From Sedimentisphaera cyanobacteriorum (lineage in GTDB: Bacteria; Planctomycetota; Phycisphaerae; Sedimentisphaerales; Sedimentisphaeraceae), in contig NZ_CP019633.1 of NCBI RefSeq assembly GCF_001997385.1, forward strand, positions 210,001-242,000: DNA of 32,000 nt, given 5' to 3'. Shown here in pieces: positions 1-27,452 of the stretch. The position numbers and the translations under genes are program-made. Under the pieces are notes generated by a model. It saw nothing but the letters and a program-made list of their open reading frames with translations. It did not search any database and was not told the DNA's origin. Each line of letters begins with the position of its first letter. The stretch's first letter is position 1.

Positions 1-97
1 TCTAATCAGCCGTCCGGCGTTTTATTGTCATAATGCTGCTTAATTTTTGGCGGCTTTAATAAAAATTTCAGAAAAGATTCTCTTAAGGGAGAAATTT

Positions 98-12249: not shown

Positions 12250-12346
12250 TTTGTGAAAAATGGCGTTGAAGAACCTGCCCTATAAATTATACTTCATCTC
12301 AGTTTTATTGCATTAAGCGAAGTTAATTATTTTGAAAGGAATCAAA

Positions 12347-14905
12347 GTGGAACTTTTATCCGGTTGCTCATTGCCCAAGTTTAAGGCTCTCAGTACTGCT
12401 CAAAAAATCATTTCGCTATTTTTGAGGAAGAAAAAATTGCGCCAATCTTTTATGTTTCTTTTCCTGATTAGTTTTGCTGTTCTCTCGGCAGGCAGCGCTG
12501 TGGGCGGGTCAGAACCTCGTTCAAGCTGGTCGGGTGTTTATCCGCATCTTGCATATTTCAATGATAACAGAGAATGCGGCACTGGTGCAGTTGTGCCTTG
12601 GGCTGATCGGCTCTGGGTTGTTACTTACGCCCCTCACAGCCCAAAAGGCTCGGAGGGTGAGAATCTTTATGAAATTGACAGTGATTTAAATCTTACTGCC
12701 CATCCTGAAAGCATTGGAGGCACGCCCGCCGCTCGTATGATTCATCGTGAGTCGAATCAGCTGTTCATTGGCCCTTATGTTGTTGATGATGAGCGTAATA
12801 TTAGAGTTATCCCTTACTCTAAGATGATGGGACGTCATACAGGGATTGCCCGGCATTTGTTTGAGCCTTCATCGAAAGTATATTATGCAACCATGGAAGA
12901 AGGGCTTTATGAAGTCAACGTTAATACTCTTGAAGTAAATTGTTTGATTAGAGACGGCAATTCGGGTGCTCCGAAAGAAGGGATTAAGAGTGATCTGCCC
13001 GGCTATCACGGAAAAGGATTTTATTTAGCTCAAGACCGGCTCGTTTATGCGAATAACGGACAAAAAGGCCCAAAGGCAAAAACCGACCCTACAATCCCCT
13101 CAGGTGCTTTGGCAGAGTGGTACGGGCAGGGGGACTGGCAGCTTGTTCGCAGAGATCAGTTTACTGAGGTAACAGGCCCAGGAGGGATCTACGGCAATCC
13201 TAACAGTTCCGACCAGCTGTGGTCAATTGGCTGGGATCAGCGTTCTTTAATTCTCGCTCTGCTTGATAAGGGGCAATGGAGCTTTTACCGTTTACCGAAA
13301 GCTTCTCATACCTATGACGGTGCGCACGGCTGGAATACCGAGTGGCCAAGAATTAGAGATATCGGTGAAGAATACTTGCTTATGAATATGCATGGAATGT
13401 TTTGGCAGTTTCCAAATAACTTTTCACGTGAAGACCGCAGCGGAATCAGGCCGATGTCAACTTATCTGATGGTGCTTGGTGATTTCGCTCAGTGGCGGGA
13501 CAGGGTTGTTTTAGGATGCAATGTTACTGCCAGAAGCGAGTTTTTGAATACTCTAAACGCTAAAGGGGATATGGCTTCGCCAGGCCAGTCTCAATCTAAT
13601 CTCAGGTTTATCGACAGCGGCCGTTTGGACAGTTTTGGAAAACCTATTGGCCGAGGTGCAGTGTGGCTGAATGATTCTGTTAAAAAAGGTCAAGCTTCTG
13701 ATCCATACCTGTTTGCCGGTTTTGACATGCGCAGCGTGCATTTGGCACATCAAAATGATAAGCCGGTTAGTTTTATATTCGAAGTGGACAAGCTTGGAGA
13801 TGGAAGCTGGGAGCATTTGAAAACTGTAACTGTAGATGCGGACGGTTATAAATGGGCAGCTTTCTCCCCTTCAGAAAAGGGCGAATGGATACGAGTACAT
13901 ACCAACAGGGACTGTTCACAGGCAACAGTATTCTTCCAGTACAGCAGCCATGAAAAACGCACAACCCAGCTTGATAAAATCTTCGACGGTATCGCTCGTC
14001 CCGGAAGTTCAGCTGTTTGCGGAGGTTATATTAGAGCAAGAGGGGAAAACAAAAAAACGCTTCAGTTTTCAGCTAAAACCAGAGAAAACGGAAAAGTTAA
14101 GAACGCAGGCTATTACGAGATGATGCTGGATAACAAAGATTCTATGAGCTTGCGCAGAGTTGATGATGAACAAGCCCATACCTTTATGCAGGAAAATATG
14201 GAAGTTCCTGAAGATGTTATAAGCGTAGATCAGGCCTCTTTGATATATGTTGACGAAAAGGGCAAGCGTTTTCGTCTTCCCAAAGGCGATGAGTCTTTTG
14301 ATAAAACCGGACCGGTTGGTTCAGAGCGTATTTCCCGTGAAGTTGTAACTGAAAGAGATCTGTTCAATGCTCACGGCACGTTCTATGAACTCCCGGCGAA
14401 AAACGCTGGCGGTTTTTCCAAAATACGTCCAGTTGCAACTCACAATCGCCGTATCGCAGATTACTGCAGCTGGCGAGGCCTTTTAATTCTTTCCGGCATT
14501 GCTGATAATGCCCCAGAGAGCAATAAACATATTATTCGTTCCGAGGACGGCAAGGCTGCCCTTTGGGTTGGCGCAGTTGATGACCTATGGGAGTTTGGCA
14601 AACCTGTCGGCAGGGGAGGCCCTTGGAAAGATACCCATGTAAAAGCTGGTGAGCCTTCAGATCAGTATCTGATGACAGGGTACGAGAATAAAACTCTGGA
14701 GCTCTCTCATAAAAGCGATAAACCGGTAGAGGTATGCATCGAAGTGGATATCGACGGACAGGGCACTTGGAAAACTTACCGTAAGATTCAAATTCCTGCT
14801 GACTGTACTGTTAAGCACCGCTTCCCTGAAGGTTTCAATGCCTATTGGGTGCGCACAACAGCCGATACCGAAACCGTTGCCACCGCCTATTTTATATATG
14901 AATGA
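12347..14905 (+). CDS. Conserved secreted protein of unknown function: N-terminal propeller-like region plus two copies of a ~100-aa beta-sandwich-like repeat. Candidate uncharacterised glycan-active enzyme.
   Basis: The ORF is open from 12332 (TTG). GTG 12347 has GAAAGGA 6 nt upstream. ATG 12452 (MFLFLISFAVLSAGSAVGG) is an alternative start. Internal repeats: FGKPIGRGAVWLNDSVKKGQASDPYLFAGF...DKPVSFIFEVDKLGDGSW (nt ~13630..13942) versus FGKPVGRGGPWKDTHVKAGEPSDQYLMTGY...DKPVEVCIEVDIDGQGTW (nt ~14593..14902). I recognise no named family. Confidence 0.8.
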   Translation: MELLSGCSLPKFKALSTAQKIISLFLRKKKLRQSFMFLFLISFAVLSAGSAVGGSEPRSSWSGVYPHLAYFNDNRECGTGAVVPWADRLWVVTYAPHSPKGSEGENLYEIDSDLNLTAHPESIGGTPAARMIHRESNQLFIGPYVVDDERNIRVIPYSKMMGRHTGIARHLFEPSSKVYYATMEEGLYEVNVNTLEVNCLIRDGNSGAPKEGIKSDLPGYHGKGFYLAQDRLVYANNGQKGPKAKTDPTIPSGALAEWYGQGDWQLVRRDQFTEVTGPGGIYGNPNSSDQLWSIGWDQRSLILALLDKGQWSFYRLPKASHTYDGAHGWNTEWPRIRDIGEEYLLMNMHGMFWQFPNNFSREDRSGIRPMSTYLMVLGDFAQWRDRVVLGCNVTARSEFLNTLNAKGDMASPGQSQSNLRFIDSGRLDSFGKPIGRGAVWLNDSVKKGQASDPYLFAGFDMRSVHLAHQNDKPVSFIFEVDKLGDGSWEHLKTVTVDADGYKWAAFSPSEKGEWIRVHTNRDCSQATVFFQYSSHEKRTTQLDKIFDGIARPGSSAVCGGYIRARGENKKTLQFSAKTRENGKVKNAGYYEMMLDNKDSMSLRRVDDEQAHTFMQENMEVPEDVISVDQASLIYVDEKGKRFRLPKGDESFDKTGPVGSERISREVVTERDLFNAHGTFYELPAKNAGGFSKIRPVATHNRRIADYCSWRGLLILSGIADNAPESNKHIIRSEDGKAALWVGAVDDLWEFGKPVGRGGPWKDTHVKAGEPSDQYLMTGYENKTLELSHKSDKPVEVCIEVDIDGQGTWKTYRKIQIPADCTVKHRFPEGFNAYWVRTTADTETVATAYFIYE

Positions 14906-14917
14906 TGCAGTTTTATT

Positions 14918-17704
14918 ATGATGATAAAAAGCGTGATTAGGATTTCAGAATTGGTTGCATTTCTCGCAGTGATACTGTTTTTGAGCAGTTCGGCTCTATC
15001 TGCTGAGAATGTGTTTACTTATGATTTTACAGAGCTTGATGCGGAGGTTTCCAAAGGTGTCTCTTTGGAAGTTCGCAAAGATTCTGCGAAATGGTATGGC
15101 CGTGAGCAAGGTTACCAGCATGCATATCTTAGTGAAAAGAAGCAGTTCGTTGAATTTGCTGTTAATGTTCCTGAACCCGGGATGTATGCCCTGAAGGTAA
15201 AGCAGCTCAATCAACCTGATAACGGCATCTATCAGCTGCTTTTGGGCAGTGAAAATGATGGATTTGCTTTGGCTGGCGGCGGCCTGAAGATCGATCAGGC
15301 CGATCTCTGCGGAGAATACAGTTTTAGAAATGTCAATTTGGGCGTGCATCGTTTTCAGACAGCCGGCCTTAAAAAATTCAGGTTTAAGACTGTAGGCAAA
15401 AATAAAGACTCCAAAAGTTACAATCTCTCCTTCTCTGAACTGACTCTCATGAAAATCCTGCCGCTTGAGGTTTCTGATTTCTCAGATATGGAGTATGTGA
15501 GCGATGTTAATTCACAAGACGGCTTCTATTATCGAATAAAATCTGACGCCCCGGGTGAAGTTGTGAAGTATCCTGTTAAGGCAGAAAAGGAAGGTTTTTA
15601 TGCAATCGTAATACGAAACGTATTAAGCCCTGCGGGTGCTGAATACAAAGTGTCTTTTGATAATAAAAATTTAGGCAGCAAGATTGATTCCTTCAATCCT
15701 GATTTGCAGTATTCAATGTTTACAGCTGGCGTTATAGAAGTTGATTCCCCGGGTGAGCATATTGTAGAATTAAAAATCACAGGGAAGAATTCGATAAGTT
15801 CCGGCTACTCGTTAAATTTTGACACAATACGCTTGGTTGACCCGGATATTATCGTAACATCCGGGTGGGGTGTTAATTCAAGCAGGGTTAAAGGGTGGTG
15901 GCCGAAATCGACTTATGCAGATAATTACTACGGGAGATTCTACCGTTATTCAAGGGCGGGTCATACCCGTTTCTACCGTAATTTGAAACCCTCCGATGAG
16001 CCGGAAATAATAGCATGGTGGCCCTGGCAGCCTGATTTTCAAGGTTTTCTTGCTTCTGGATGGTATAATGTTTATTACTGGCTTCCCGACGGCGACCCTG
16101 ACCGTGCATCAAATGCGAAATATACCGTGCATCATATTTCCGGCCAAACAACCTACACCGTTGACCAGCGAAAGACAGGCGGAGAATGGAAACTGCTGGG
16201 CAGCCATTTCTTTGAGAAGGGGCGGGCAGGGCGTTCAGGGTATGTGGAGCTTTCGAACGATGCAGATGGTGTGGTTATTGCCGATTCGATCAAATATGAG
16301 TATGCTGAAAAACAGGGTTTAGAGCCGAAATCGCAATCTCTGCAAGATGCAGAGTCTGGTTCATACACAGTTCAGTTAGCTCAAGAGAAGCAAACCGTCT
16401 GGGGACTTGGCGTGGAGATCCAGCCGGAAGCCGAAAGGAGAGGCGGAATTAACCGCAGCAAGGGCATCCCGGGCGATTTAACCGAATCGGAGCGAAAGAG
16501 ATTCTATAATGAACTGCTCGGATTCGGCCATGGGTTCCGATATATGAGGCTTCCTATGGGGCTATTTTATACCGGGCTGGATGATGAGAAAAAGCAGTTT
16601 CAGCAGAATTGGAGCTCTCAGAACGAGCAGCTGGCAGAAATGATACAAGAATCCGGTATTGAAGGCTTTAATTTTGAATACTGGTCGCCAGCTCCGTATT
16701 TCAAATCTAACAATAGGTTTGTTGGCGGTTCTCTGAAAAAATTTGATGAAAAATTTTTGACTGAATTTGGCAATTCAATTGTTAAAGATTTAAAATATGT
16801 TCAGGAAAATATCGCACCTGTCAAAATGTTTTCTTTGCAGAATGAACCAACCGTTGGCGAAGCCGGCTACGGCTGCTGCGAGTATAGCGGGCAAGAATAC
16901 TGCGATACGTTTCGAGCAGTCGCGCCGATTGTTAAGAATGAATTTCCTGAGCTTTTTATACACGCCGACAGTCAGGCCGGCCAGTACGGCAAAGGCTCGA
17001 TACTTATTCGAGATGATTCCAAGGCGATTGAATATGTGGATGGCTGGTCTTGGCATCGTGTCGGGAAAAATTCTGATGAACAGATCAAGTACAGCGATTC
17101 GAAATTTAAGAAAGATACACAAGGCAGGCCTGTGCTGAACGTGGAATTTGAATATCTTGATGGTGCAGGTTCTCAGTGGCGATTTGTAAATACTGCTCAG
17201 TCTATTATGAATTGGTTTGCATTTAATGAGTCTCCTGCATGGTTCTGGCTGCACGCTCTAAAACCTACTGATACTCTTATAGGTGAAAGGTTTGGGCTTG
17301 GTTTTTGGCGGCCTTCAAGCGATAATGATTTTACCCGTTATGTTGACATCAAAAAGAATCACTGGCAGTACAATTGGTATCACTGGAACGCTATTGCCGG
17401 ATTCTTGAAGTATATGCCGTGGGATTCAGTTATTTGCCGTGTAGATGAAGACCAGACCCGAAAAAATCAGCGAATTCTGGCTTGGAAAACGCCTGAGGGC
17501 AAGTTGGTTCTTGCTTTAACCAATCGCTCTTGTGACGCACCTTTTAAATTCAATCTTGATGTCGGGGTTGATGCTGAATTTAAAGGATATCGCTATACTT
17601 CTCAAACCAGAAATAATATTGGAAAGTACGCAGGAATAAGACGGGGGCGGGAGTTTTCAAGGGAATTAAAGCCTTTTACTGTTGAGTTTTGGGTGCAGCA
17701 GTAA
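14918..17704 (+). CDS. Secreted GH30-like (clan GH-A) glycoside hydrolase with two N-terminal beta-sandwich repeats and a golvesin-C-like domain. Paralog of the C-terminal half of the 98..5857 gene.
   Basis: 928-aa ORF beginning 12 nt after the previous stop, with a signal-peptide-like N-terminus (LVAFLAVILFLSSSALSA). It shares blocks with gene 1: FRYMRLPMGLFYTGLD, IEGFNFEYWSPAPYFKSNN, MFSLQNEP (nt 16838..16849), VDGWSWH, a retained Glu in LNVEFEY, and the C-terminus EFWVQQ. Confidence 0.87.
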   Translation: MMIKSVIRISELVAFLAVILFLSSSALSAENVFTYDFTELDAEVSKGVSLEVRKDSAKWYGREQGYQHAYLSEKKQFVEFAVNVPEPGMYALKVKQLNQPDNGIYQLLLGSENDGFALAGGGLKIDQADLCGEYSFRNVNLGVHRFQTAGLKKFRFKTVGKNKDSKSYNLSFSELTLMKILPLEVSDFSDMEYVSDVNSQDGFYYRIKSDAPGEVVKYPVKAEKEGFYAIVIRNVLSPAGAEYKVSFDNKNLGSKIDSFNPDLQYSMFTAGVIEVDSPGEHIVELKITGKNSISSGYSLNFDTIRLVDPDIIVTSGWGVNSSRVKGWWPKSTYADNYYGRFYRYSRAGHTRFYRNLKPSDEPEIIAWWPWQPDFQGFLASGWYNVYYWLPDGDPDRASNAKYTVHHISGQTTYTVDQRKTGGEWKLLGSHFFEKGRAGRSGYVELSNDADGVVIADSIKYEYAEKQGLEPKSQSLQDAESGSYTVQLAQEKQTVWGLGVEIQPEAERRGGINRSKGIPGDLTESERKRFYNELLGFGHGFRYMRLPMGLFYTGLDDEKKQFQQNWSSQNEQLAEMIQESGIEGFNFEYWSPAPYFKSNNRFVGGSLKKFDEKFLTEFGNSIVKDLKYVQENIAPVKMFSLQNEPTVGEAGYGCCEYSGQEYCDTFRAVAPIVKNEFPELFIHADSQAGQYGKGSILIRDDSKAIEYVDGWSWHRVGKNSDEQIKYSDSKFKKDTQGRPVLNVEFEYLDGAGSQWRFVNTAQSIMNWFAFNESPAWFWLHALKPTDTLIGERFGLGFWRPSSDNDFTRYVDIKKNHWQYNWYHWNAIAGFLKYMPWDSVICRVDEDQTRKNQRILAWKTPEGKLVLALTNRSCDAPFKFNLDVGVDAEFKGYRYTSQTRNNIGKYAGIRRGREFSRELKPFTVEFWVQQ
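15839..17704 (+). repeat. Paralogous block copy 2 (golvesin-C-like plus GH30-like unit). Partner at 3986..5857.
   Basis: See copy 1. The two are collinear, of similar length (1866 versus 1872 nt), with no indels obvious by eye in the catalytic part. Confidence 0.9.
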
Positions 17705-18435: not shown

Positions 18436-19272
18436 ATGAAGAAATCAGTTTTGTTTGCAATCTTTTTAGTATTTGCAGCGGGTGCAGCAAAAGCCGCATT
18501 TAATGCTGTAGGAGTGTATGACGAACAGGATGTTCAGTCTAATCAAGTTGATTACGACATGGGTTATTCGAGCAACAGCTCATGGACAACAGGTATTGGC
18601 CAGACACTTGGTGATAATCAGATTTTAACTCTCCAAGAGTTTAAGCCTATGGTTGAACAAGCCTTTACGAACGGCCGCGGCGGAGTTGTTGACTTCGAAC
18701 ACCAGGGTACAATAGACGATGCTTCATCATTTGATGTCAAATTTGACGGGGGCAACAAGCAATTTACGGTAACCGCAACTGGAAATAGCGGCGCAGCCGG
18801 CACATTCAAGTTTGACGAGACCGGCGGTGACAGAACACCAATATCAGGTGCCGACAGGCTTCAGGGAAATAGTCAGTCCCTTGATTTTGACTTTAGTGAT
18901 TATATTGGTATGGAATCAGACGAAAGAATAAAGGCCATCGGCTGGACAATCCTCGGCCGAAGCAATTCGTCGGGCTCCGCTAACTGGCGGGTGATTGCTC
19001 GTTATACTAACGGCACAGATACCGGCAGCAGCAGTACCTTCCGCACGATAAATATGTCCAGCGGGGATACTACCCATGATAGTTTCTCGGGGATTGCTGC
19101 ACCTGATGGTTACTGGATTACTGGTATGAGGATAAACAGCGACCAGGGCGCTTGGTCAGCTCATGATGATTTTGGATTTGTAACAGTTCCCGAGCCCGCA
19201 ACTCTAGCGATATTTGGTCTTGGCGGCTGCATTGTTTCTCTAAATAAACGCAAACGCAGAAACGGCAGATAA
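18436..19272 (+). CDS. PEP-CTERM-anchored surface protein made of a signal peptide, one copy of an unrecognised ~230-aa module, and a PEP-CTERM sorting signal.
   Basis: 278-aa ORF with a strong SD GAAGGAG (18421..18427). The signal peptide is MKKSVLFAIFLVFAAGAAKA. The C-terminus VPEPATLAIFGLGGCIVSLNKRKRRNGR has the PEP motif, a TM helix and an Arg-rich tail, which is the canonical exosortase substrate signature. Confidence 0.9.
   Translation: MKKSVLFAIFLVFAAGAAKAAFNAVGVYDEQDVQSNQVDYDMGYSSNSSWTTGIGQTLGDNQILTLQEFKPMVEQAFTNGRGGVVDFEHQGTIDDASSFDVKFDGGNKQFTVTATGNSGAAGTFKFDETGGDRTPISGADRLQGNSQSLDFDFSDYIGMESDERIKAIGWTILGRSNSSGSANWRVIARYTNGTDTGSSSTFRTINMSSGDTTHDSFSGIAAPDGYWITGMRINSDQGAWSAHDDFGFVTVPEPATLAIFGLGGCIVSLNKRKRRNGR
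18496..19185 (+). repeat. Unrecognised ~230-aa module, copy A (most divergent).
   Basis: It shares these blocks with copies B and C: AVGVYDEQ.VQ.NQVDY, NSSWTTGIGQ.LG, FDGG.KQFTV.ATGNSGA, GG.RTPISG..RLQGN, F.FSD..GM, WRVIA.YTNG.D.GS, INMSSGDT..DSFSGI.AP.GYWIT. Confidence 0.85.
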
Positions 19273-19300
19273 TATTTTAAGGTTTAACAGATAGTAATAT

Positions 19301-20761
19301 ATGATGTCAAAGAGAATGAGCCGCAGACAGTTTTTGAGCTTGACAGCGATAGCTGGTACTGGCGCAGGCTTTCTTTGGGGATTATCTTCAGAGGCGAATT
19401 CTTCTGCTAATAAAAAGCCTAATATCATCTTTGTTATGCTGGATGATATGGGCTATGGTGATTTAAGCTTGTATGGGCAAAAACGGATTCGAATGCCAAA
19501 TATTGAACAGATGGCCAGAGAAGGAATCCGGTTTACTCAGGTTTATTCCGGCGCAACGATATGTGCTCCCGCACGCAGCACTCTAATGACCGGCCAGCAT
19601 ACAGGCCGCACCACAGTTCGAGGCAACTGGGGTGATCTCAAGCAAGGCGCAGTGCCCTGCAGCGGCGGCTCTGGGCCGCGAGTACCGCTGAAGGATGACG
19701 ATGTTACAATCGCAGAAGTACTCAAGGATGCCGGCTATGCAACCGGCATTACTGGAAAATGGGGGTTAGGCGAGCCTGATACTTCAGGCCTGCCTAACCG
19801 GCAGGGCTTTGATGAATGGTTTGGGTATCTCAATCAGCATCTTGCTCATTCACACTACCCTGAATATTTATGGGATAACCGGAAAAAGAAAAAGCTTAAA
19901 GGCAATACTGGCACAACAAAAAACTTTGCAAATCAATCACATTACAGCCACGACCTTTTCACTGATTTTGCAATGGATTTTATTAAGCGGCGCGGGGCTG
20001 GCGAAGCGCCCTTTTTCCTCTATGTACCTTATTGCCTGCCCCATGATTCCTTTCAAAACCCTGAAATCGAATCATATGCTTATGAAGCTGGCTGGTCTAA
20101 AAAGGAAAAAGTTTACGCTTCGATGCTAACCCGTGCGGACAGGGATATGGGAAAAATGTTTTCTCTGCTTACAGAGATGGATATTGATAAGGATACTATT
20201 GTTTTTTTCTGTTCAGATAACGGCGCAGCTAATCGCTATGAGGGCACTTTCAACAGTTCCGGAAAGCTGCGCGGGAAAAAACGCAGTATGTATGACGGGG
20301 GCTTGCGTACTGTAATGGTATTAAGGTGGCCAGGCCGTATCAAAGCGGGTGCTGTGAGCGATGATATTTGGTATTTCCCGGATGTATTGCCTACCTGCGC
20401 AGAGCTGGCCGGGGTTGCACCGCCTGGGAATATAGACGGGGTAAGTGTTCTTCCAAGCATCTTGTCTCAGCCGCAGCCGCAGCTCTACAGTCGACCGCTG
20501 TATTGGGAAGACCATGAAAGAGGTTTTCGCTGTGCAGCGAGAAAGGGTAACTGGAAATTTGTCTGCAATGATGTGGATAAGCCTCCCGAGGTTTACAATC
20601 TCTCAGATGATATTGGTGAGGAAGAAAACCTTGCTGAATCGAATCCTGAGCTTGTTAAATGGTTCTGGGATTTTGTTAAAGAATCACATAAGCCATCAGC
20701 AAATTGGCCTGTCCCACGGTTAGATAAAGGTGAGGGTGAAATTTCAAATCGAGTTTTATAA
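19301..20761 (+). CDS. Cys-type (formylglycine-dependent) sulfatase, arylsulfatase A / GalNAc-6-sulfatase-like, with twin-arginine (Tat) signal.
   Basis: 486-aa ORF. SRRQFLSLTAIAGTGAG is a Tat motif. PNIIFVMLDDMGYGD and the sulfatase signature ICAPARSTLMTGQHTGR (C-x-P-x-R) are present, as are GKWGLG and FFCSDNGA. The start could be ATG 19301, 19304 or 19316. Confidence 0.93.
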   Translation: MMSKRMSRRQFLSLTAIAGTGAGFLWGLSSEANSSANKKPNIIFVMLDDMGYGDLSLYGQKRIRMPNIEQMAREGIRFTQVYSGATICAPARSTLMTGQHTGRTTVRGNWGDLKQGAVPCSGGSGPRVPLKDDDVTIAEVLKDAGYATGITGKWGLGEPDTSGLPNRQGFDEWFGYLNQHLAHSHYPEYLWDNRKKKKLKGNTGTTKNFANQSHYSHDLFTDFAMDFIKRRGAGEAPFFLYVPYCLPHDSFQNPEIESYAYEAGWSKKEKVYASMLTRADRDMGKMFSLLTEMDIDKDTIVFFCSDNGAANRYEGTFNSSGKLRGKKRSMYDGGLRTVMVLRWPGRIKAGAVSDDIWYFPDVLPTCAELAGVAPPGNIDGVSVLPSILSQPQPQLYSRPLYWEDHERGFRCAARKGNWKFVCNDVDKPPEVYNLSDDIGEEENLAESNPELVKWFWDFVKESHKPSANWPVPRLDKGEGEISNRVL

Positions 20762-20792
20762 TGTTTAATTAATATTTTGAGGAGCTATTACA

Positions 20793-23039
20793 ATGAATAA
20801 TATCAAAATTATATTGGCGCTGTTTCTTTTTCTTGGCTGCGGATTAACCTTCGCTGCCACTTTTGAAGCTGTAGGCGTTTACGACGAACAGGACATGCAG
20901 GCTAATCAAGTTGATTACAGTATGACCTATTCAGACAATTCTGTATGGACAACAGGTATCGGCCAAACCCTTGGAGAGAGTCAGGTAATGACGTATGAAG
21001 AATTCAAGGTGATGGTCGAAGAATATTATTTAGATGGTGATGGAGGAGTAATAAATTTTGATAATGCGGAAATGAGCGATTCGGCCTCATTCGCTGCGAG
21101 TTTTGATGGAGGCCAGAAACAGTTTACAGTGAATGCGACGGGAAATTCAGGTGCTAGCGATACAGTTCAAAACACATCTTCCGGAGGGAATAGAACGCCC
21201 ATCTCCGGCGATAAAAGACTCCAGGGCAATACGAACAGGTATGAATTCGAATTCAGCGATTTTACAGGGATGGACCCGCAGGACATAATCGCCGCAGGAA
21301 TCACTGTTCTCGGCAGAGACGGCAGCAGCGACAGCTGGTGGCGCGTTATTGCATATTACACCAACGGAGAAGACTCAGGAAGCACAAGCACCTCAAGATA
21401 TATCAATATGAGCAGCGGAGACACAACTGAGGACAGTTTCTCAGGAATAAGGGCGCCTGAGGGATACTGGATTACAAAATTGCGTGTACATTGCGATATA
21501 AGCTGGACATGGAGCGCGGCAGATGATTTGGGCTTCGTGTTTGAATCGTCAACTAAGCCTTACGGGCCTTCTGTAAGTCAGACTGCCCAGCCCGGCGGGG
21601 TAGATGCAGTTCTTTCATGGCAGGCTGGTCCTGATGAGAATGATGTTTATGCTGTGAACCCCGACATTGTTGATCAGTACGTTTTTATGACAACTGGCGG
21701 GGATGACCCGAACCTTTATTACGTTGGAGCTGCAGGCGAAGACCCGGGCACTGAAGATCCTTCCTCAGAATATGCCGTTTCAGACCTCAATTATGATGCT
21801 TCTTATCAGTGGGCAGTCGTAGAGGCTCTTGACGGATACGAGCAGAGCTTAACCGTAGGGGTAAGTGAGCTTGAGGATGTTAATGAAAATAATATCATCG
21901 GTTCAGTATGGAGCTTTGATACGCTTTCAAGCGTTCCGGTTATAGAAACTCAGCCTGCAGATGTTCTGGAAGATGCAGGAGAGGATGCTTCGATTTCTGT
22001 TGAAGTCAGCAGCGTGTCTCCTGAGCAGTATCTCTGGTATAAATCTGATGATAATTCTAGCGATACTCCCGAAGATGACGTTGAGGCAGGCAGCTCTTCA
22101 AATACACTGAATCTGGACAGCATTGCTGTTGCCGACGAAGGATACTACTATTGCGTTATAACAAATAACGGCGGGTCTGTTACTTCTGATACCGCCAACG
22201 CAGCAGTAAAGCGTCAGATGGCGCACTGGACATTTGATCAGGCAGATTATTCCGGCGGGCAGTATCTTGATGTCAGCAGCGATGATGATGTTTATTATCC
22301 CGCAGACCCCAACGGAACACCCGCATTTAATACAGGTATCGATGGTGATTCGATTCTGATTGACGAGGTAAACAGCTGGGCTCGTGCAGGTACGTGGAAT
22401 CCTTCAAAGTATTCCAATCAGCTTACTGTAAGCGCTTGGGTTAAATGGGATGGAGATACTTCATCCCACAAAGGAATTGTAAGCAAGCGTGATATCTGGG
22501 GAAGTGAAACTATGCTCTGGAGTTTGATAATTAGAAATGAATATCCGGGCGGTACTGTCCGTTTTTACAACAGCAGCGGACTAAGCGTTTGGACAAGCGA
22601 ATCTCTTCCGATTGATGAATGGACGTTGATAACAGCAGTCTTTGACGGCTCAGAAGGCAAAGTTTATTTCAATGGATTAGAGAAGGCTTCCGGAAGCGGC
22701 AGCCTATCTTCTGGAACAGAGACTATGATTATGCTGGGTGCTGTAGATAATCCTTCTGTCAACGAAGAATTTGACCCGCTCAGCGGCAGCGAACTGGATG
22801 ATGTTCAAATTCTAAATTATGCAGCAGATAAATTCGCTGTGGCTGATATGTACTATGAAGTTACAGGCATAAAATCCTGCATATTAGATTATGAGTCTCA
22901 GCTCGATGTTGCAAATACCAACACCGACCTTGTGATAGGGCAGGAAGGCTTTGAGCCTGATTGCGTTATCGATATCTCTGATTTTGCTGCTCTTGCCGGG
23001 AATTGGCTAAGCTGCGGATTATACCCTGAGTGTGAATAA
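20793..23039 (+). CDS. Secreted protein: signal peptide, unrecognised ~230-aa module, WSF(D/T)T-type beta-sandwich, Ig-like domain, LamG/ConA-like domain, Cys-bracketed dockerin-like C-terminal tail.
   Basis: 748-aa ORF with SD GAGGAG upstream. The signal peptide is MNNIKIILALFLFLGCGLTFA. Motifs: LSWQAG...YQWAVVEA...GSVWSFDT; VADEGYYYCVITNNGG (Ig); VSAWVKWDG...LDDVQILNYA (LamG); and the end EPDCVIDISDFAALAGNWLSCGLYPECE. Confidence 0.88.
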   Translation: MNNIKIILALFLFLGCGLTFAATFEAVGVYDEQDMQANQVDYSMTYSDNSVWTTGIGQTLGESQVMTYEEFKVMVEEYYLDGDGGVINFDNAEMSDSASFAASFDGGQKQFTVNATGNSGASDTVQNTSSGGNRTPISGDKRLQGNTNRYEFEFSDFTGMDPQDIIAAGITVLGRDGSSDSWWRVIAYYTNGEDSGSTSTSRYINMSSGDTTEDSFSGIRAPEGYWITKLRVHCDISWTWSAADDLGFVFESSTKPYGPSVSQTAQPGGVDAVLSWQAGPDENDVYAVNPDIVDQYVFMTTGGDDPNLYYVGAAGEDPGTEDPSSEYAVSDLNYDASYQWAVVEALDGYEQSLTVGVSELEDVNENNIIGSVWSFDTLSSVPVIETQPADVLEDAGEDASISVEVSSVSPEQYLWYKSDDNSSDTPEDDVEAGSSSNTLNLDSIAVADEGYYYCVITNNGGSVTSDTANAAVKRQMAHWTFDQADYSGGQYLDVSSDDDVYYPADPNGTPAFNTGIDGDSILIDEVNSWARAGTWNPSKYSNQLTVSAWVKWDGDTSSHKGIVSKRDIWGSETMLWSLIIRNEYPGGTVRFYNSSGLSVWTSESLPIDEWTLITAVFDGSEGKVYFNGLEKASGSGSLSSGTETMIMLGAVDNPSVNEEFDPLSGSELDDVQILNYAADKFAVADMYYEVTGIKSCILDYESQLDVANTNTDLVIGQEGFEPDCVIDISDFAALAGNWLSCGLYPECE
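20856..21545 (+). repeat. Unrecognised ~230-aa module, copy B.
   Basis: It aligns collinearly with copy C (25455..26141) and copy A (18496..19185). All copies are the same length to within one codon. Confidence 0.9.
21191..21498 (+). repeat. Near-identical nucleotide tract within module copy B. Partner at 25787..26094.
   Basis: My by-eye alignment finds about 10 mismatches in 308 nt. This includes a perfect run of about 90 nt (ggcgataaaagactccagggcaatacgaacaggtatgaattcgaattcagcgattttacagggatggacccgcaggacataatcgccgcagg). Confidence 0.9.
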
Positions 23040-23052
23040 TAAAACCTTATCC

Positions 23053-23095
23053 GGGACCGGCTGGCCTGCAAGGGTTGGCTGGTTCCAGTTTTTTT
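23053..23095 (+). terminator. Rho-independent terminator after the module-Ig-LamG gene.
   Basis: The arms GGGACCGGCUGGCC (23053..23066) and GGUUGGCUGGUUCC (23073..23086) pair over 14 positions, 5 of them G-U wobbles. The loop is UGCAAG, and the stem is followed by AG plus a T7 run. Confidence 0.65.
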
Positions 23096-23142
23096 CAAAA
23101 GCACAAAACTCAATCTGTTAAGAAAATTATAAGGAATGATTC

Positions 23143-23376
23143 GTGAAAAATTTACTCTCTTTAATGGCTGTCATTTTAATATTTTCTGCTGCCGGCAAAA
23201 GCTTTGGCGAAACCATAACTATAGATAATGATATTCAAACCTACACATCCCTTGCTGATACTGCAGTAAATATCACCGGCACCTCAGAGCTGCACCTTTC
23301 CGGCAGCGCGACTGTATTAGATAACTGTCAGATAAATTTGAATTCTGCGGAAGCTTGGCTTTTTTTTCATCTCTGA
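23143..23376 (+). CDS. N-terminal fragment (signal peptide plus the first ~55 mature residues) of the downstream large protein, separated from it by a frameshift in a T8 run.
   Basis: GTG start at 23143 with AAGGAA 6 nt upstream. The signal peptide is MKNLLSLMAVILIFSAAGKSFG. The fragment ends ...NSAEAWLFFHL* immediately after the T8 run at 23360..23367, and the reading continues sensibly in the -1 frame. Confidence 0.6.
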   Translation: MKNLLSLMAVILIFSAAGKSFGETITIDNDIQTYTSLADTAVNITGTSELHLSGSATVLDNCQINLNSAEAWLFFHL

Positions 23377-26300
23377 AGCCCTCTGAGGTCAATTCGCCAG
23401 TTTATCTCAGCCAAATTTATGTAAGCGGCACACAGTCTGCATTGAATTCAAATATTAGAATAGTACGTTACCATAACGGCGCTGTTTTAATTCCGCATGG
23501 CGAGGATTATGAGCCGCTTAAAGTGTACAGCGGAATGAACTTTACTGGCAGTTCCCTCAGCCTCGGCCTGCATACCTATTACAAAACTGACCAGCTCGGG
23601 TTTATGAACGATTCAATTCGCTCTTTTACTTTGAAACGAGGCTATATGGCCACATTTGCCGAAAATAGCGACGGTACAGGAATCAGCAGAGTTTATATAG
23701 CAGACCAGAAGAATTTGAAAATTGGAGTTATGCCCGCAAATCTTGATAAATCTGTTTCGTTTGTCCGGGTGTTCCCATGGCACTGGACAACCAAAAAAGG
23801 CTGGGCAGGCGGAACTCCAAGTTATGTTTCAGGTTCGGCTTCTGAAGCTTTGAATTGTTCATGGCGGTATGACTGGGGCAATGGCGGAGAGACTACTCTG
23901 GATGTGGAATATGTTCCGATGAGACACGGCCCAACATGGCCGAGCTATTCTGTAACCAACGCAAAGGAAAATGTAACGCATGTGCTGGGATTTAATGAAC
24001 CCGACCGGCCGGATCAGGCTGATATGTCAGTTTCAGAAGCGATTGACAGATGGCCGAATCTGCTTGCCTCAGGCCTGCGTTTAGGAGCGCCTTCGCCCAG
24101 CGACGGCGGCCTGAACTGGCTGTATGATTTTATTGATCAGGCCGATGCCTTGAACTATCGTGTAGATTTTGTCCCAGTGCATTTTTATAAAAATAACTGG
24201 TCTGCCTCACAGATGTATAATTGGCTGAAAGCCGTGCACGAAAGAACAAAAAGACCTCTCTGGATTACTGAGTGGAACAACGGCTGCAACTGGACAGCCC
24301 CTCATCCCACATACGAGCAAAATGGCGATAAGATTGCGGAGCTGCTTTCAATGCTTTCCACCGCTTCATTTGTGGAAAGATATTCAATCTATCAGTGGTG
24401 CACAAATCGTGAGATGTTTTATGATGACGGCTGGATTACCCCTGCGGGCAATGCCTACAAGGACCATGTCAGCTTCCCAGCGATATCATTAGACCAAAAC
24501 AAGGAATGTATTGGTTTTTACAAACTCGATGCACCTAACGGAACTTCGGCTGTTGATTTGTCCGGCAAGCAGATGGAAGCCGGCTTGAAAAACGGCCTCT
24601 CATTTGATAATGATTCTGTTCAGGGAATGCGGGGATATGCCCTTAGTTTGGATGGTGATGAGTATATTGAATTGCCCGATGGATACGATGAACTGGAAAA
24701 TGGCTTTTCAGCTTCCTTCTGGGTATATCCGACAGCGGTGAAATCGTATGCGAGATTCTTTGATCTCGGCAATGGCCCAAATGGAGATAATATCGTAGCC
24801 GCAAGATATAGTGATACTGATGATTTATATTTTAAGGTATATAATAATGCCACCGGCGGCACTATGGTTCGGGCTTCCAATGCCATAGAGCTGAATAAGT
24901 GGCAGTTTTTTTCTGTTACAATTGACAGCATTGGTAATGTGAAGATTTATAAAGATTCACAGCTTATCAAAACAGGCACTTCCTCGCCGCCTCGGAGTGT
25001 CTTTAGAAGCTCAAATTTTATAGGCCGCAGCAATTGGCCTTACGATGGATATTATGAGGGCAGGATAGATGATATTCGTTTGTTTGATTATGCTCTCAAT
25101 GAAAATGAAATTGATGCCTTGTTTAATATAAGTATGACTTCAGAGCCTTATGACGGAACACCTGCTGATATACCCGGCCAAATCTCAGCTGAACGTTTTG
25201 ATTTAGGAGGGCAGGGCATTGCTTATTACGATTCTACAATAGCAAACGAGCAGGGAGCTTTCAGGTCGGGTGAAGACGTGGATATTCGGGGCGTTTTTGA
25301 TTATTTTAACAGCTTTGCGGTAACCGATATCGAACCTGATGAATGGCTTAATTATACAGTTAATATTCCCGATTCTGACAATTACTGTATGTACCTGCGT
25401 GCCAGTACAACTTTAAACGAAACTCCAGTTCTAATTAAACATTTCACTTACCCTTTTTTTGAGGCTGCAGGAGTGTATGACGAACAGGAGGTTCAGACTA
25501 ATCAAGTTGATTACAGTATGAGCTATTCGAGCAATTCCTCATGGACAACGGGTATCGGACAAAACCTTGGAGCAAGTCAGGTTATGACGTATGAAGAATT
25601 CAAGCCGTGGGTGGAAGAGAAATACTTAAGCGGCAATGGAGGCGTGCTCAATTTTGATAATACCGAGCTCGGTAGTTCAGAGTCTTTCAATGCAGTCTTT
25701 GCCGACGGGCAGAAAAAATTCAGCATTACTGCAACCGGCAGCTCGGGTGCAAGCAGCTTTGTCAACAATACAGCTTCCGGAGGCGGTAGAACGCCCATCT
25801 CAGGCGATAAAAGACTCCAGGGCAATACGAACAGGTATGAATTCGAATTCAGCGATTTTACAGGGATGGACCCGCAGGACATAATCGCCGCAGGCATCAC
25901 TGTTCTCGGCAGAGACGGCAGCAGCAATGCCTGGTGGCGCGTTATTGCATATTACACCAACGGAGAAGATTCAGGAAGCACAAGCACCTCAAGATATATC
26001 AATATGACCAGCGGAGACACAAGCGAGGACAGTTTCTCAGGAATAAGGGCGCCTGAGGGATACTGGATTACAAAATTGCGTGTACATTGCGATAACAGCT
26101 GGATTTGGAGCGCTGTGGACGACTTAGCTTTTGTTTTTGAAAATCAGGCACAAAGTTCTTCGGTTGTGGAATTAAGCAGTTTAGAAGAACAAATGCTTGC
26201 CGAGTTTACAGTCAGTAGCACAGGTTCTTCTGATAATTTCAAAACCTTTGTACTCAATGATGTGATTTTGCCTGCTGGCGGAAGTAAGCTTTTGCGGATG

Positions 26301-27452
26301 GAATTTCCGGTTGGCGGGCTTGATGTAAACTGGCTTAGAATTGAGAAAGAAGGGCATTGGAGCGAAACTCCCCCAACGATTCCGGGAAGGATTCAGGCTG
26401 AAGAATACGACTTCGGCGGTCCCGGCAAAGCGTATTACGACACTACTTTTGATAACGCCATCGGCGATTTTAGGTATTATGAAGATGTTGATGCTGCTGA
26501 TATCGGTGATTCTGGAAGCCGGTATGCAGTAGGCGGTATTGAGGCAGGTGAATGGCTCAGATATACAGTGAACAGTAATGAGGGGGCAGCAGATGTATAT
26601 GCCAAAGTTGCTTCTGTTCAGTCCGGAGGCCAAATCTTTGTTCGGATTGATGGTGAGCTTTCGGCCGTTATTGATGTTCCCAATACATGCGGATTAACAA
26701 ACTGGCAAATTATTCCCGCACCTTGTGAAACATTGCCGGAAAATCAGAATGCTTTAGTTGAGCTTGAATTTGCAGGGGAGGGCTTCCAGCTGGATTGGGT
26801 ACAGTTCGCAAAGCAGATTCCCTATCCGGAAAATGTTCCGCACTCAATTCCCGGCCAGATAGAATTTGAGGATTTTGATACCGGCGGCCATGATATAAGC
26901 TTTTATGATACAACTCCTGCAAATACTTATGGCGGGTATCGGCCTGATGAAGCCGTGGAAATTGCTGCTGTAAATGACGGATTTGCTGTGTATGCAGAAG
27001 CCGGCGAATGGCTTGAATACACCGTTGATTTAACAGGCGGAAACTATGATCTCTCAATTCTTTCCGCAGGGCCTTATTCCGGTCAGCAGCTTACATTATC
27101 TCTTGATGGGAATCATATTGTGTCTGCAGATTTGAATACAACAGGAGGCTGGTCAGACTGGCATACAACCGTGATCCCTGATTTGGTCCTCCCGGACGGG
27201 CAGGGACAGGTTTTGCGGATGAAATTGGATAGCTCAAGCGCTTTCATCGATAATATGAGCTTTATCAGGCATTATAATCCCGCAGATATTGACCAGAGCA
27301 CTAAGGTTGATTTAGAAGATTTTTCGATATTAGCTGATCAATGGCTTGATGCACCGGGCGAGCCGTCCGCTGATATTGCAAAACCTCCGAACAATCAGGT
27401 AGGAATAGAGGATTTACTGATTCTACTTGAAAACTGGCTTATAGAGGAATAA
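23355..27452 (+). CDS. Large secreted multidomain protein (body of the frameshifted gene): Glyco_hydro_cc-type (PF11790, GH128-like, clan GH-A) catalytic domain, LamG domain, CBM6 interrupted by the ~230-aa module, two intact CBM6 domains, dockerin-like C-terminal repeat pair.
   Basis: 1365-aa ORF. The TTG at 23355 is probably not a real start (see the frameshift). Catalytic blocks: SWRYDWGNGG, VLGFNEPD (acid/base Glu), VDFVPVHFY, PLWITEWNNG (nucleophile Glu). LamG: FSASFWVYP...GRIDDIRLFDYALNENEIDALF. CBM6 starts: IPGQISAERFDLGG, IPGRIQAEEYDFGG, IPGQIEFEDFDTGG. Tail: KVDLEDFSILADQWL...VGIEDLLILLENWL. The GH128 link is tentative. Confidence 0.85.
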   Translation: MAFFSSLKPSEVNSPVYLSQIYVSGTQSALNSNIRIVRYHNGAVLIPHGEDYEPLKVYSGMNFTGSSLSLGLHTYYKTDQLGFMNDSIRSFTLKRGYMATFAENSDGTGISRVYIADQKNLKIGVMPANLDKSVSFVRVFPWHWTTKKGWAGGTPSYVSGSASEALNCSWRYDWGNGGETTLDVEYVPMRHGPTWPSYSVTNAKENVTHVLGFNEPDRPDQADMSVSEAIDRWPNLLASGLRLGAPSPSDGGLNWLYDFIDQADALNYRVDFVPVHFYKNNWSASQMYNWLKAVHERTKRPLWITEWNNGCNWTAPHPTYEQNGDKIAELLSMLSTASFVERYSIYQWCTNREMFYDDGWITPAGNAYKDHVSFPAISLDQNKECIGFYKLDAPNGTSAVDLSGKQMEAGLKNGLSFDNDSVQGMRGYALSLDGDEYIELPDGYDELENGFSASFWVYPTAVKSYARFFDLGNGPNGDNIVAARYSDTDDLYFKVYNNATGGTMVRASNAIELNKWQFFSVTIDSIGNVKIYKDSQLIKTGTSSPPRSVFRSSNFIGRSNWPYDGYYEGRIDDIRLFDYALNENEIDALFNISMTSEPYDGTPADIPGQISAERFDLGGQGIAYYDSTIANEQGAFRSGEDVDIRGVFDYFNSFAVTDIEPDEWLNYTVNIPDSDNYCMYLRASTTLNETPVLIKHFTYPFFEAAGVYDEQEVQTNQVDYSMSYSSNSSWTTGIGQNLGASQVMTYEEFKPWVEEKYLSGNGGVLNFDNTELGSSESFNAVFADGQKKFSITATGSSGASSFVNNTASGGGRTPISGDKRLQGNTNRYEFEFSDFTGMDPQDIIAAGITVLGRDGSSNAWWRVIAYYTNGEDSGSTSTSRYINMTSGDTSEDSFSGIRAPEGYWITKLRVHCDNSWIWSAVDDLAFVFENQAQSSSVVELSSLEEQMLAEFTVSSTGSSDNFKTFVLNDVILPAGGSKLLRMEFPVGGLDVNWLRIEKEGHWSETPPTIPGRIQAEEYDFGGPGKAYYDTTFDNAIGDFRYYEDVDAADIGDSGSRYAVGGIEAGEWLRYTVNSNEGAADVYAKVASVQSGGQIFVRIDGELSAVIDVPNTCGLTNWQIIPAPCETLPENQNALVELEFAGEGFQLDWVQFAKQIPYPENVPHSIPGQIEFEDFDTGGHDISFYDTTPANTYGGYRPDEAVEIAAVNDGFAVYAEAGEWLEYTVDLTGGNYDLSILSAGPYSGQQLTLSLDGNHIVSADLNTTGGWSDWHTTVIPDLVLPDGQGQVLRMKLDSSSAFIDNMSFIRHYNPADIDQSTKVDLEDFSILADQWLDAPGEPSADIAKPPNNQVGIEDLLILLENWLIEE
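23360..23367 (+). other. T8 homopolymer at the frame junction. It is a candidate indel, phase-variation or slippage site.
   Basis: The sequence is c-tttttttt-c. With T9 the reading would be ctt ttt ttt tca tct ctg aag, giving ...AWLFFSSLKPSEV... in a single frame. In the 0 frame the run also forms the heptamer T_TTT_TTT. Confidence 0.8.
25455..26141 (+). repeat. Unrecognised ~230-aa module, copy C, nested inside the first CBM6.
   Basis: The sequence PFFEAAGVYDEQEVQTNQVDYSMSYSSNSSWTTGIGQNLG...GYWITKLRVHCDNSWIWSAVDDLAFVFE is flanked by CBM6 N-half and C-half sequence. Confidence 0.9.
25787..26094 (+). repeat. Near-identical nucleotide tract within module copy C. Partner at 21191..21498.
   Basis: Same alignment as for the partner. 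Identity drops sharply upstream of 25787, and more gradually downstream of 26094. Confidence 0.9.

Follow-up and report, generated by a model that had tools for sequence, protein, structure and literature searches.

A previously unnamed jelly-roll module of exosortase-sorted proteins and secreted enzymes in Planctomycetota and Verrucomicrobiota: a candidate glycan-binding family

A protein module of ~215–230 residues, present in three copies, was analyzed in a 32,000-nt stretch of the Sedimentisphaera cyanobacteriorum genome (contig NZ_CP019633.1, positions 210,001 to 242,000; hereafter the window). The module is read, at a probability of roughly 0.55, as a previously unnamed family of extracellular jelly-roll domains that resemble carbohydrate-binding modules (CBMs) and would bind glycans non-catalytically. 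This reading was adopted because of the predicted fold class, the glycan-active fusion partners and the regulator-linked loci in which the module is found; from these we infer that the module binds a ligand, that this ligand is a glycan and that the sorted form lies at the cell surface. The form carrying a PEP-CTERM sorting signal would act as a surface glycan-binding protein (SGBP) of regulator-controlled polysaccharide-degradation loci. The enzyme-borne form would act as a substrate-targeting CBM, grafted onto secreted enzymes in some lineages (as a rule immediately behind the signal peptide, and in the Sedimentisphaera group within a CBM6 loop as well). In the window, gene A, a sulfatase gene and gene B, together with gene C, would give the cell surface and two large LamG/glycoside hydrolase (GH) enzymes a common binding specificity, such that the substrate caught at the surface would be the one to which the enzymes are targeted; the module probably serves to keep the target polysaccharide bound both to the cell surface and to the enzymes. 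The probability was kept at this level because the fold class also serves non-glycan ligands and binding is a prediction.

Module copies and host genes

Copies A (18496..19185), B (20856..21545) and C (25455..26141) lie, like all features of the window described here, on the + strand. Translations of 230, 230 and 229 residues aligned collinearly with 124 of 233 columns invariant, which bore out the extents and codon counts given in an initial annotation of the window. Pairwise identity was 62% for A–B, 57% for A–C and about 81% for B–C, and because tblastn between copies returned E values of 1e-71 to 1e-126 the similarity is far beyond chance. The invariant sequence blocks quoted in the same annotation were essentially right, except that two are not strictly invariant (copy C reads AAGVYDEQ and FADGQKKFSITATGSSGA). 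Its three differing contexts, a PEP-CTERM protein for A, an Ig-LamG protein for B and a GH/LamG/CBM6 protein for C, were recovered by Pfam and NCBIfam domain matches. The window is a glycan-degradation locus, with genes for a GH2, an AraC-type regulator that also bears a periplasmic-binding-protein domain, an SSS transporter, a sulfatase, a GH92 and two Golvesin_C/LamG giants.

Gene A (18436..19272; 278 aa) is the open reading frame (ORF) L21SP3_00157 of S. cyanobacteriorum (Phycisphaerae, Planctomycetota), and its protein is 100% identical to family member P0001. It carries the stand-alone, exosortase-sorted form of the module: a signal peptide (residues 1–20), copy A (hidden Markov model score 267.6) and a PEP-CTERM signal. 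P0001 and P0002 bear the name 'Ice-binding protein' in UniRef; we take this to be no more than how InterPro labels the PEP-CTERM domain, and neither Pfam nor fold searches of the module showed any resemblance to ice-binding proteins. The sorting signal (19186..19269) comprises VPEP, a hydrophobic helix and a KRKRR tail, and was matched by PF07589 (E 7.6e-5; 23.1 bits, cut-off 20.7) and TIGR02595 (24.6 bits, cut-off 16), so that gene A has the PEP motif, hydrophobic helix and basic cluster of an exosortase substrate at above-cut-off scores. No exosortase (EpsH) gene was found in the 32-kb window, the part of the genome that was scanned. PEP-CTERM signals are believed to target proteins to the cell surface, where exosortase probably cleaves them, but this process has been little tested (PMC4960237). 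Calling copy A membrane-anchored, as had been done, is therefore a simplification.

Gene B (20793..23039; 748 aa) encodes a signal peptide, the N-terminal enzyme-borne copy B, Ig_3 (residues 382–458) and Laminin_G_3 (residues 539–677). Gene C (23143..27452; main ORF 23355-27452, 5' part from GTG 23143) encodes Glyco_hydro_cc (residues 162–368), Laminin_G_3 (residues 433–586), a split CBM6 domain (CBM6-1) with the module nested in it, and two further CBM6 domains identified by domain match (CBM6-2, 26379-26813; CBM6-3, 26847-27272). Copy C had been described as buried in this protein, and its position can be refined to a loop of CBM6-1, the N-terminal half of which (25170..25454) is interrupted by the module and followed by the C-terminal half (26142..26351; CBM_6 profile positions 63–125); both halves were delimited by CBM6 alignment, the former also by in silico removal of the module. 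Once the module was cut out, a full-length CBM_6/CBM_35_2 match was obtained (profile positions 5–125 of 125); with the module left in place, CBM6-1 was matched over its C-terminal half only (63–125). The rejoined halves were collinear with both intact CBM6 copies found in protein C and in its orthologs, the insertion point falling between two strands. The same nested cassette was found in P0032 of S. salicampi and in P0038, where a GH16 catalytic domain replaces GH_cc.

Family search and domain architectures

An exhaustive profile search for family members, counted as representative clusters at 50% identity, found 742 with E<=1e-3; of these, 526 reached E<=1e-10 and 134 reached E<=1e-30. Named members belong to Planctomycetota, and genome loci add metagenome-assembled genomes (MAGs) of Opitutia and Akkermansiaceae (Verrucomicrobiota); so far as seen, the module is specific to Planctomycetes–Verrucomicrobia–Chlamydiae (PVC) bacteria, in Planctomycetota and Verrucomicrobiota. 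The module had been described as matching no named family, and this held: neither Pfam-A (2025 copy) nor NCBIfam 20.0 matched it, 30 members scanned singly against Pfam at E<=5 returned no recurrent family, and the family profile reached a best E of 0.24 against PDB sequences. The search thus yielded a large unnamed PVC family with no full-length match to a characterized family in Pfam, NCBIfam or PDB. A literature search found no paper on the module.

Architectures were counted in 169 retrieved proteins, with PEP-CTERM called by regular expression. Stand-alone proteins (~250–310 aa) accounted for 134 of the 169, with PEP-CTERM recognizable in 122; about 80% of sampled members are thus stand-alone, and signal peptide–module–PEP-CTERM is the default form of the family. 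N-terminal fusions directly after the signal peptide numbered 22 (PEP-CTERM recognizable in 2), internal modules 5 (PEP-CTERM in 0) and tandem proteins with 2–4 modules 8 (PEP-CTERM recognizable in 3). The natural tandem arrays include P0029, P0033 and P0039 (504–520 aa) and P0035 (945 aa); in some, PEP-CTERM follows a pair of modules, and one contains three modules set apart by ~100-residue spacers.

Among single-copy fusions the module directly followed the signal peptide in 22/27. Fusion partners, the majority of which are glycan-active, were Glyco_hydro_cc (four proteins), GH16, Pectate_lyase_2 (three), Peptidase_S9, Laminin_G_3, Ig_3, TSP3, PATR, fn3, Calx-beta and CBM6/35. Fusions made up 9/23 proteins inside the close 'WTTGIGQ' subfamily and 26/146 outside it. 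Module copies group largely by lineage rather than by architecture, and have therefore moved repeatedly between anchored and enzyme-borne contexts or been homogenized within genomes.

Structure prediction and conserved residues

Structures were predicted with AlphaFold 2 for the whole of protein A (model 1; predicted local distance difference test score (pLDDT) 80, predicted template-modeling score (pTM) 0.79) and for copy B alone with 136 aligned sequences (model 2; pLDDT 92.2, pTM 0.90). In model 2, a short N-terminal strand, a long loop and a helix (residues 47–59) precede a sandwich of about eleven strands. The predicted fold is a galactose-binding-domain-like beta-jelly-roll, a likeness of fold class and not of family membership. 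Model 2 was compared with PDB by Foldseek, in which CBM61 (2xon) was the sole match at E<=1e-3 (E 3.4e-4, prob 0.99; template-modeling score (TM) 0.44, normalized to target). CBM22 in Xyn10B (2wys/2w5f) followed at prob 0.97–0.99; CBM22 1dyo gave TM 0.51 and a root-mean-square deviation (rmsd) of 4.6 Å over 150 columns, and CBM35 2w1w gave TM 0.45. Discoidin/F5-8 type C domains, the Fbs1 sugar-binding domain and SUN domains were found lower in the list. The nearest solved analogues are hence CBM61, CBM22 and CBM35, at the level of fold only.

Nine polar positions were at least 92% conserved across 177 domains: Y and D just after signal-peptide cleavage, an N, the S of 'ISG', the T and R of 'GxTxLxR', the D of 'DxF' and a 'DD' on the last strand. 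This pattern is compatible with a metal and/or ligand site. CBM6 and CBM35 bind structural Ca2+ through acidic residues of their N- and C-terminal strands, and the module likewise has conserved acidic residues on its first and last strands. A divergent CBM6 was rejected as the identity of the module: hhalign of the module profile against the CBM6 alignment of the locus gave a probability of 0.2%, and PF03422 and PF18099 (CBM6/CBM35) matched none of the three modules at E<=1. A CBM in the sense of CAZy is a discrete fold with carbohydrate-binding activity within a carbohydrate-active enzyme (CAZyme); the module is confidently predicted to be an autonomous fold (pTM 0.90) within GH_cc, GH16 and pectate-lyase proteins, and would provide the binding.

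Several points weigh against glycan binding. The likeness to CBMs is at fold level only (TM <=0.51, rmsd >=4.6 Å), the profile–profile comparison with CBM6 was null, and ~60–80 N-terminal residues (the long loop and the helix) have no counterpart in CBMs. Members of the fold class also bind lipids or proteins, factor VIII C2 and SUN domains being among the Foldseek matches. Some module genes stand in non-degradative contexts, in an exopolysaccharide (EPS) export cluster (locus L012) or beside genes for an extracytoplasmic function (ECF) sigma factor and FecR (L009). The nine conserved polar residues exceed what is seen in most CBM families and leave room for a catalytic role. Newness was judged by Pfam, NCBIfam and PDB, and the module may belong to a recent CBM family that has neither a Pfam model nor a structure.

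Genomic context in other loci

Loci L001–L017 bearing the module were compared with the window; pattern-based scans supplied three loci from genome contigs and one from metagenome contigs. The A/B/C trio is syntenic in S. salicampi (L001). In a metagenomic organism (L002/L003) whose copies are 43–50% identical to those of the window, the stand-alone copy with PEP-CTERM is flanked by two proteins with an N-terminal module, a GH_cc/LamG protein of 1621 aa and a LamG protein of 1438 aa, and an AraC-type regulator adjoins. In L008, a stand-alone gene is followed at once by one for a 1106-aa protein with an N-terminal module (69% identity between the anchored and fused copies), and a Y_Y_Y sensor kinase adjoins, as it does in L010. 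With the window, pairing of anchored and enzyme-borne copies thus recurs in four loci of three lineages; in one Opitutia MAG both forms are present on separate contigs.

Elsewhere the two forms were found apart. L009, L011, L012 and L013 hold a stand-alone copy alone within ±8–10 kb, and no anchored copy was found near the fused-form loci L005, L006 and L010. L011 and L013, whose module proteins are 52% identical, share the order LacI regulator, module–PEP-CTERM, N_methyl/SBP_bac_10 and GH10, the GH10 being without a module. In L017, the neighbors of the module protein are further proteins of the PEP-CTERM and N_methyl types, a sulfatase and a GH43. L014–L016, with fused forms from outside the close subfamily, are contigs of 5–8 kb and uninformative for context.

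Stand-alone module genes were repeatedly found beside prepilin-type N_methyl/SBP_bac_10 (DUF1559-like) genes (L011 8001-11578, L013 8001-11649, L009, L002 and L017), which suggests that in Planctomycetota the module is functionally linked to pseudopilin-like proteins and to the use of glycans. At L014 1-246, the 3' end of a PEP-CTERM protein gene lies directly upstream of the pectate-lyase-type fusion P0074. The last 55 residues of that PEP-CTERM protein do not match the module, so other kinds of PEP-CTERM protein can take the position of anchored partner.

Alternative explanations

The initial annotation had proposed a glycan-binding or self-associating tether. Its glycan-binding half is the better supported, by fold, partners and loci. 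The cellulosome-like half lacks support as a function of the family at large, given the lone anchored copies in L009, L011, L012 and L013 and the neighboring GH10 without the module. Under such a scheme, exosortase-sorted copy A would bind enzyme-borne copies B and C (homotypically or as cognates) and so hold the enzymes at the surface independently of cohesin and dockerin; the module would be a self-recognizing docking domain on a surface scaffold into which enzymes plug, directly or bridged by glycan, and gene conversion would keep the partners compatible. We regard this as unlikely, even though anchored and enzyme-borne copies stand together in the window, L001, L002/L003 and L008 and coexist in the Opitutia MAG. 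Because a shared glycan ligand predicts this co-localization equally well, docking is not needed to explain it; a shared ligand accounts for the co-occurrence of the two forms and also for lone anchored copies beside module-less GH10.

The remaining evidence on docking is divided in the same way. PEP-CTERM and enzyme fusion are almost mutually exclusive (PEP-CTERM in 2/22 N-terminal fusions), copies group by lineage and not by architecture (Sedimentisphaera A with B and C; the L008 pair), and natural tandem arrays exist (P0029, P0033, P0035), all of which would suit a docking domain. Set against these are the predominance of stand-alone members, the fused-form loci L005, L006 and L010 with no anchored copy nearby, and the identity of only 57–62% between A and B/C. 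Module-bearing enzymes also have C-terminal elements of their own. A dockerin-like DxxDFxxLAxxWL motif ends protein B (22965-23009) and two such motifs end protein C (27303-27347 and 27399-27440); repeats of the pattern D-x-x-D-F-x-x-L-A-x-x-W-L also terminate P0034, P0040, P0139, P0032 and P0038. No Pfam model matched the repeats at E<=0.01, and the motif was found in 0 of nine other large window proteins checked. Verrucomicrobia-like module-bearing enzymes terminate in '...RxFxRLxV' instead, and both endings may be lineage-specific C-terminal sorting or anchoring signals. The cohesin–dockerin cellulosome is alike in having one cell-bound component and enzyme-borne modules in the same locus, and differs in that here the partners would be copies of one domain and many module genomes and loci have the anchored copy only; neither cohesin (PF00963) nor dockerin (PF00404) profiles of Pfam matched the module. 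In the close subfamily, where the window, L001, L002 and L008 have both forms together, docking may apply, at low probability. If it were true, giant glycan-degrading enzymes would be held at the PVC cell surface by a cohesin/dockerin-independent system.

It is a little less probable still that the module is itself catalytic, as a compact jelly-roll lyase, hydrolase or esterase acting on glycans. Some families of jelly-roll enzymes are of comparable size (e.g., PL7 and GH16), a module of ~225 aa exceeds the typical CBM size, the highly conserved polar positions include Y, R and several D, and stand-alone copies occur in operons beside GH10. However, the top Foldseek matches were non-catalytic (CBM, lectin, discoidin) with no polysaccharide lyase or GH jelly-roll in the top 50, and no enzyme family of Pfam or NCBIfam was matched. 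The module has moreover been added repeatedly to proteins that already bear a catalytic domain, and nesting inside a CBM6 is typical of an accessory module.

A role as an N-terminal 'carrier' that PVC surface proteins would need in order to be secreted, folded or processed in connection with exosortase, and that would itself bind no ligand, appears improbable. It would explain the bias toward the position directly after the signal peptide (22/27 single-copy fusions) and the mature N-terminus xxxGVYDE conserved in stand-alone and fused forms. It fits poorly with the five internal or nested copies, of which copy C is under purifying selection like A and B (dN/dS 0.19), with the existence of tandem arrays, and with stand-alone proteins that consist of the module only and have no cargo.

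A divergent DUF4465-type (BtuJ-type) cobalamin-binding protein was effectively ruled out by model 2, the Pfam scan, the topology order and a riboswitch scan: 4jqr was the first match for model 1 (E 4e-3, prob 0.93, TM 0.31/0.37) and both are extracellular jelly-rolls with extra elements, but neither 4jqr, 9FCT nor any other DUF4465 structure was in the Foldseek top 50 of the confident model 2, PF14717 matched 0/30 members at E<=5, the window has no cobalamin riboswitch (no Rfam family at threshold) and no btu genes, and sequence, topology order and genomic context all differ. DUF4465 is an extracellular, B12-binding augmented jelly-roll with Ca2+ that has PVC members, and its jelly-roll is extended by five N-terminal strands, with a helix placed in loop DE (PMC13398666); the module helix (residues 47–59) comes early, before the sandwich.

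Gene conversion and selection

By nucleotide comparison, copies B and C share a gene-conversion tract (21191..21498 in B; 25787..26094 in C), in which 304/314 aligned nt are identical, compared with about 72% nt identity in the 5' half of the module. Synonymous divergence (dS; Nei-Gojobori) between B and C was 0.096 in codons 109–215 vs 1.43 in codons 1–108. For orthologous copies of the two Sedimentisphaera species, dS was 0.25–0.32, which places the conversion later than the species split. The same mosaic, weaker, was seen in S. salicampi. All three copies are under purifying selection (dN/dS 0.18 for A, 0.16 for B, and 0.19 for C vs its S. salicampi ortholog).

Comparison with known systems

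With glycan binding as the preferred reading, the module is a new family, as judged by Pfam-A, NCBIfam and PDB, within the familiar category of jelly-roll binding modules and surface glycan-binding proteins. It is unusual in that its default form is sorted by PEP-CTERM, that it has been grafted onto enzymes repeatedly, that it can be nested in a CBM6 and that gene conversion is ongoing. Jelly-roll CBMs (CBM61, CBM22, CBM35, CBM6) share the fold class of its C-terminal ~150 residues and, like it, are appended to glycoside hydrolases and lyases. Unlike them, the module has no sequence or profile relation to these families (no Pfam match; TM 0.44–0.51), carries an extra N-terminal elaboration of ~60–80 residues including a helix, and is mostly a stand-alone PEP-CTERM protein, which is unusual for these CBM families.

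A functional analogy, not homology, may be drawn with SusE/SusF-like SGBPs of Bacteroidota. Both would be small, surface-targeted, non-catalytic beta-sandwiches encoded in regulator-controlled glycan loci, with a specificity presumed common with the enzymes of the same locus. The two differ in phylum and in route to the surface (PEP-CTERM/exosortase for the module, lipoprotein for SGBPs), and module loci have N_methyl/DUF1559-type proteins instead of a SusC/SusD pair. Planctomycetota and Verrucomicrobiota play a major part in breaking down complex polysaccharides, including sulfated ones, in the sea and in soil. To our knowledge, they have no SusC/D machinery, which in Bacteroidota accounts for the capture of glycans at the surface. 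The family ties the little-understood PEP-CTERM/exosortase pathway to glycan-degradation loci and is a candidate for surface substrate binding. If it does bind glycans, it would constitute a CBM family of its own, and CAZymes in PVC genomes could be better annotated. It would also offer a natural case of a domain nested in CBM6 and of concerted evolution between binding modules.

Additional features of the locus

The sulfatase gene between A and B (19301..20761; PF00884 E 1.3e-48) is syntenic in S. salicampi, where the ortholog (L001 10918-12377) is broken into two ORFs of 275 and 204 aa by a frameshift or a sequencing error, a situation comparable to that of gene C in the window. Gaps between A, the sulfatase gene and B are 28–31 nt, and a terminator-like hairpin (23053..23096; 15 bp, 8 GC, plus a T-run) lies directly 3' of gene B; A–sulfatase–B is therefore probably one operon and gene C a separate unit. 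A sigma-70 promoter scan returned 27 sites vs 24.6 expected from shuffled controls, i.e. no excess, and was not used.

The main ORF of gene C and its 5' part (from GTG 23143, encoding the signal peptide and ~70 residues) are in different frames. The break lies at a T8 run (23360-23367), where one extra T would restore the frame, and the S. salicampi ortholog P0032 reads through at this position. The run is thus either the site of a homopolymer sequencing error or a candidate frameshift or phase-variable tract.

Between the SSS transporter and a Golvesin_C protein, an 857-aa ORF (12332-14905) had no Pfam match at E<=1e-3. The two large Golvesin_C proteins (47-5857 and 14918-17704) have nearly the same C-terminal sequence, '...NRA/SSDAPF.FN.DVG...FKGYRYTSQTRNN...EFWVQQ', a second shared module of the locus that is distinct from the one studied here.

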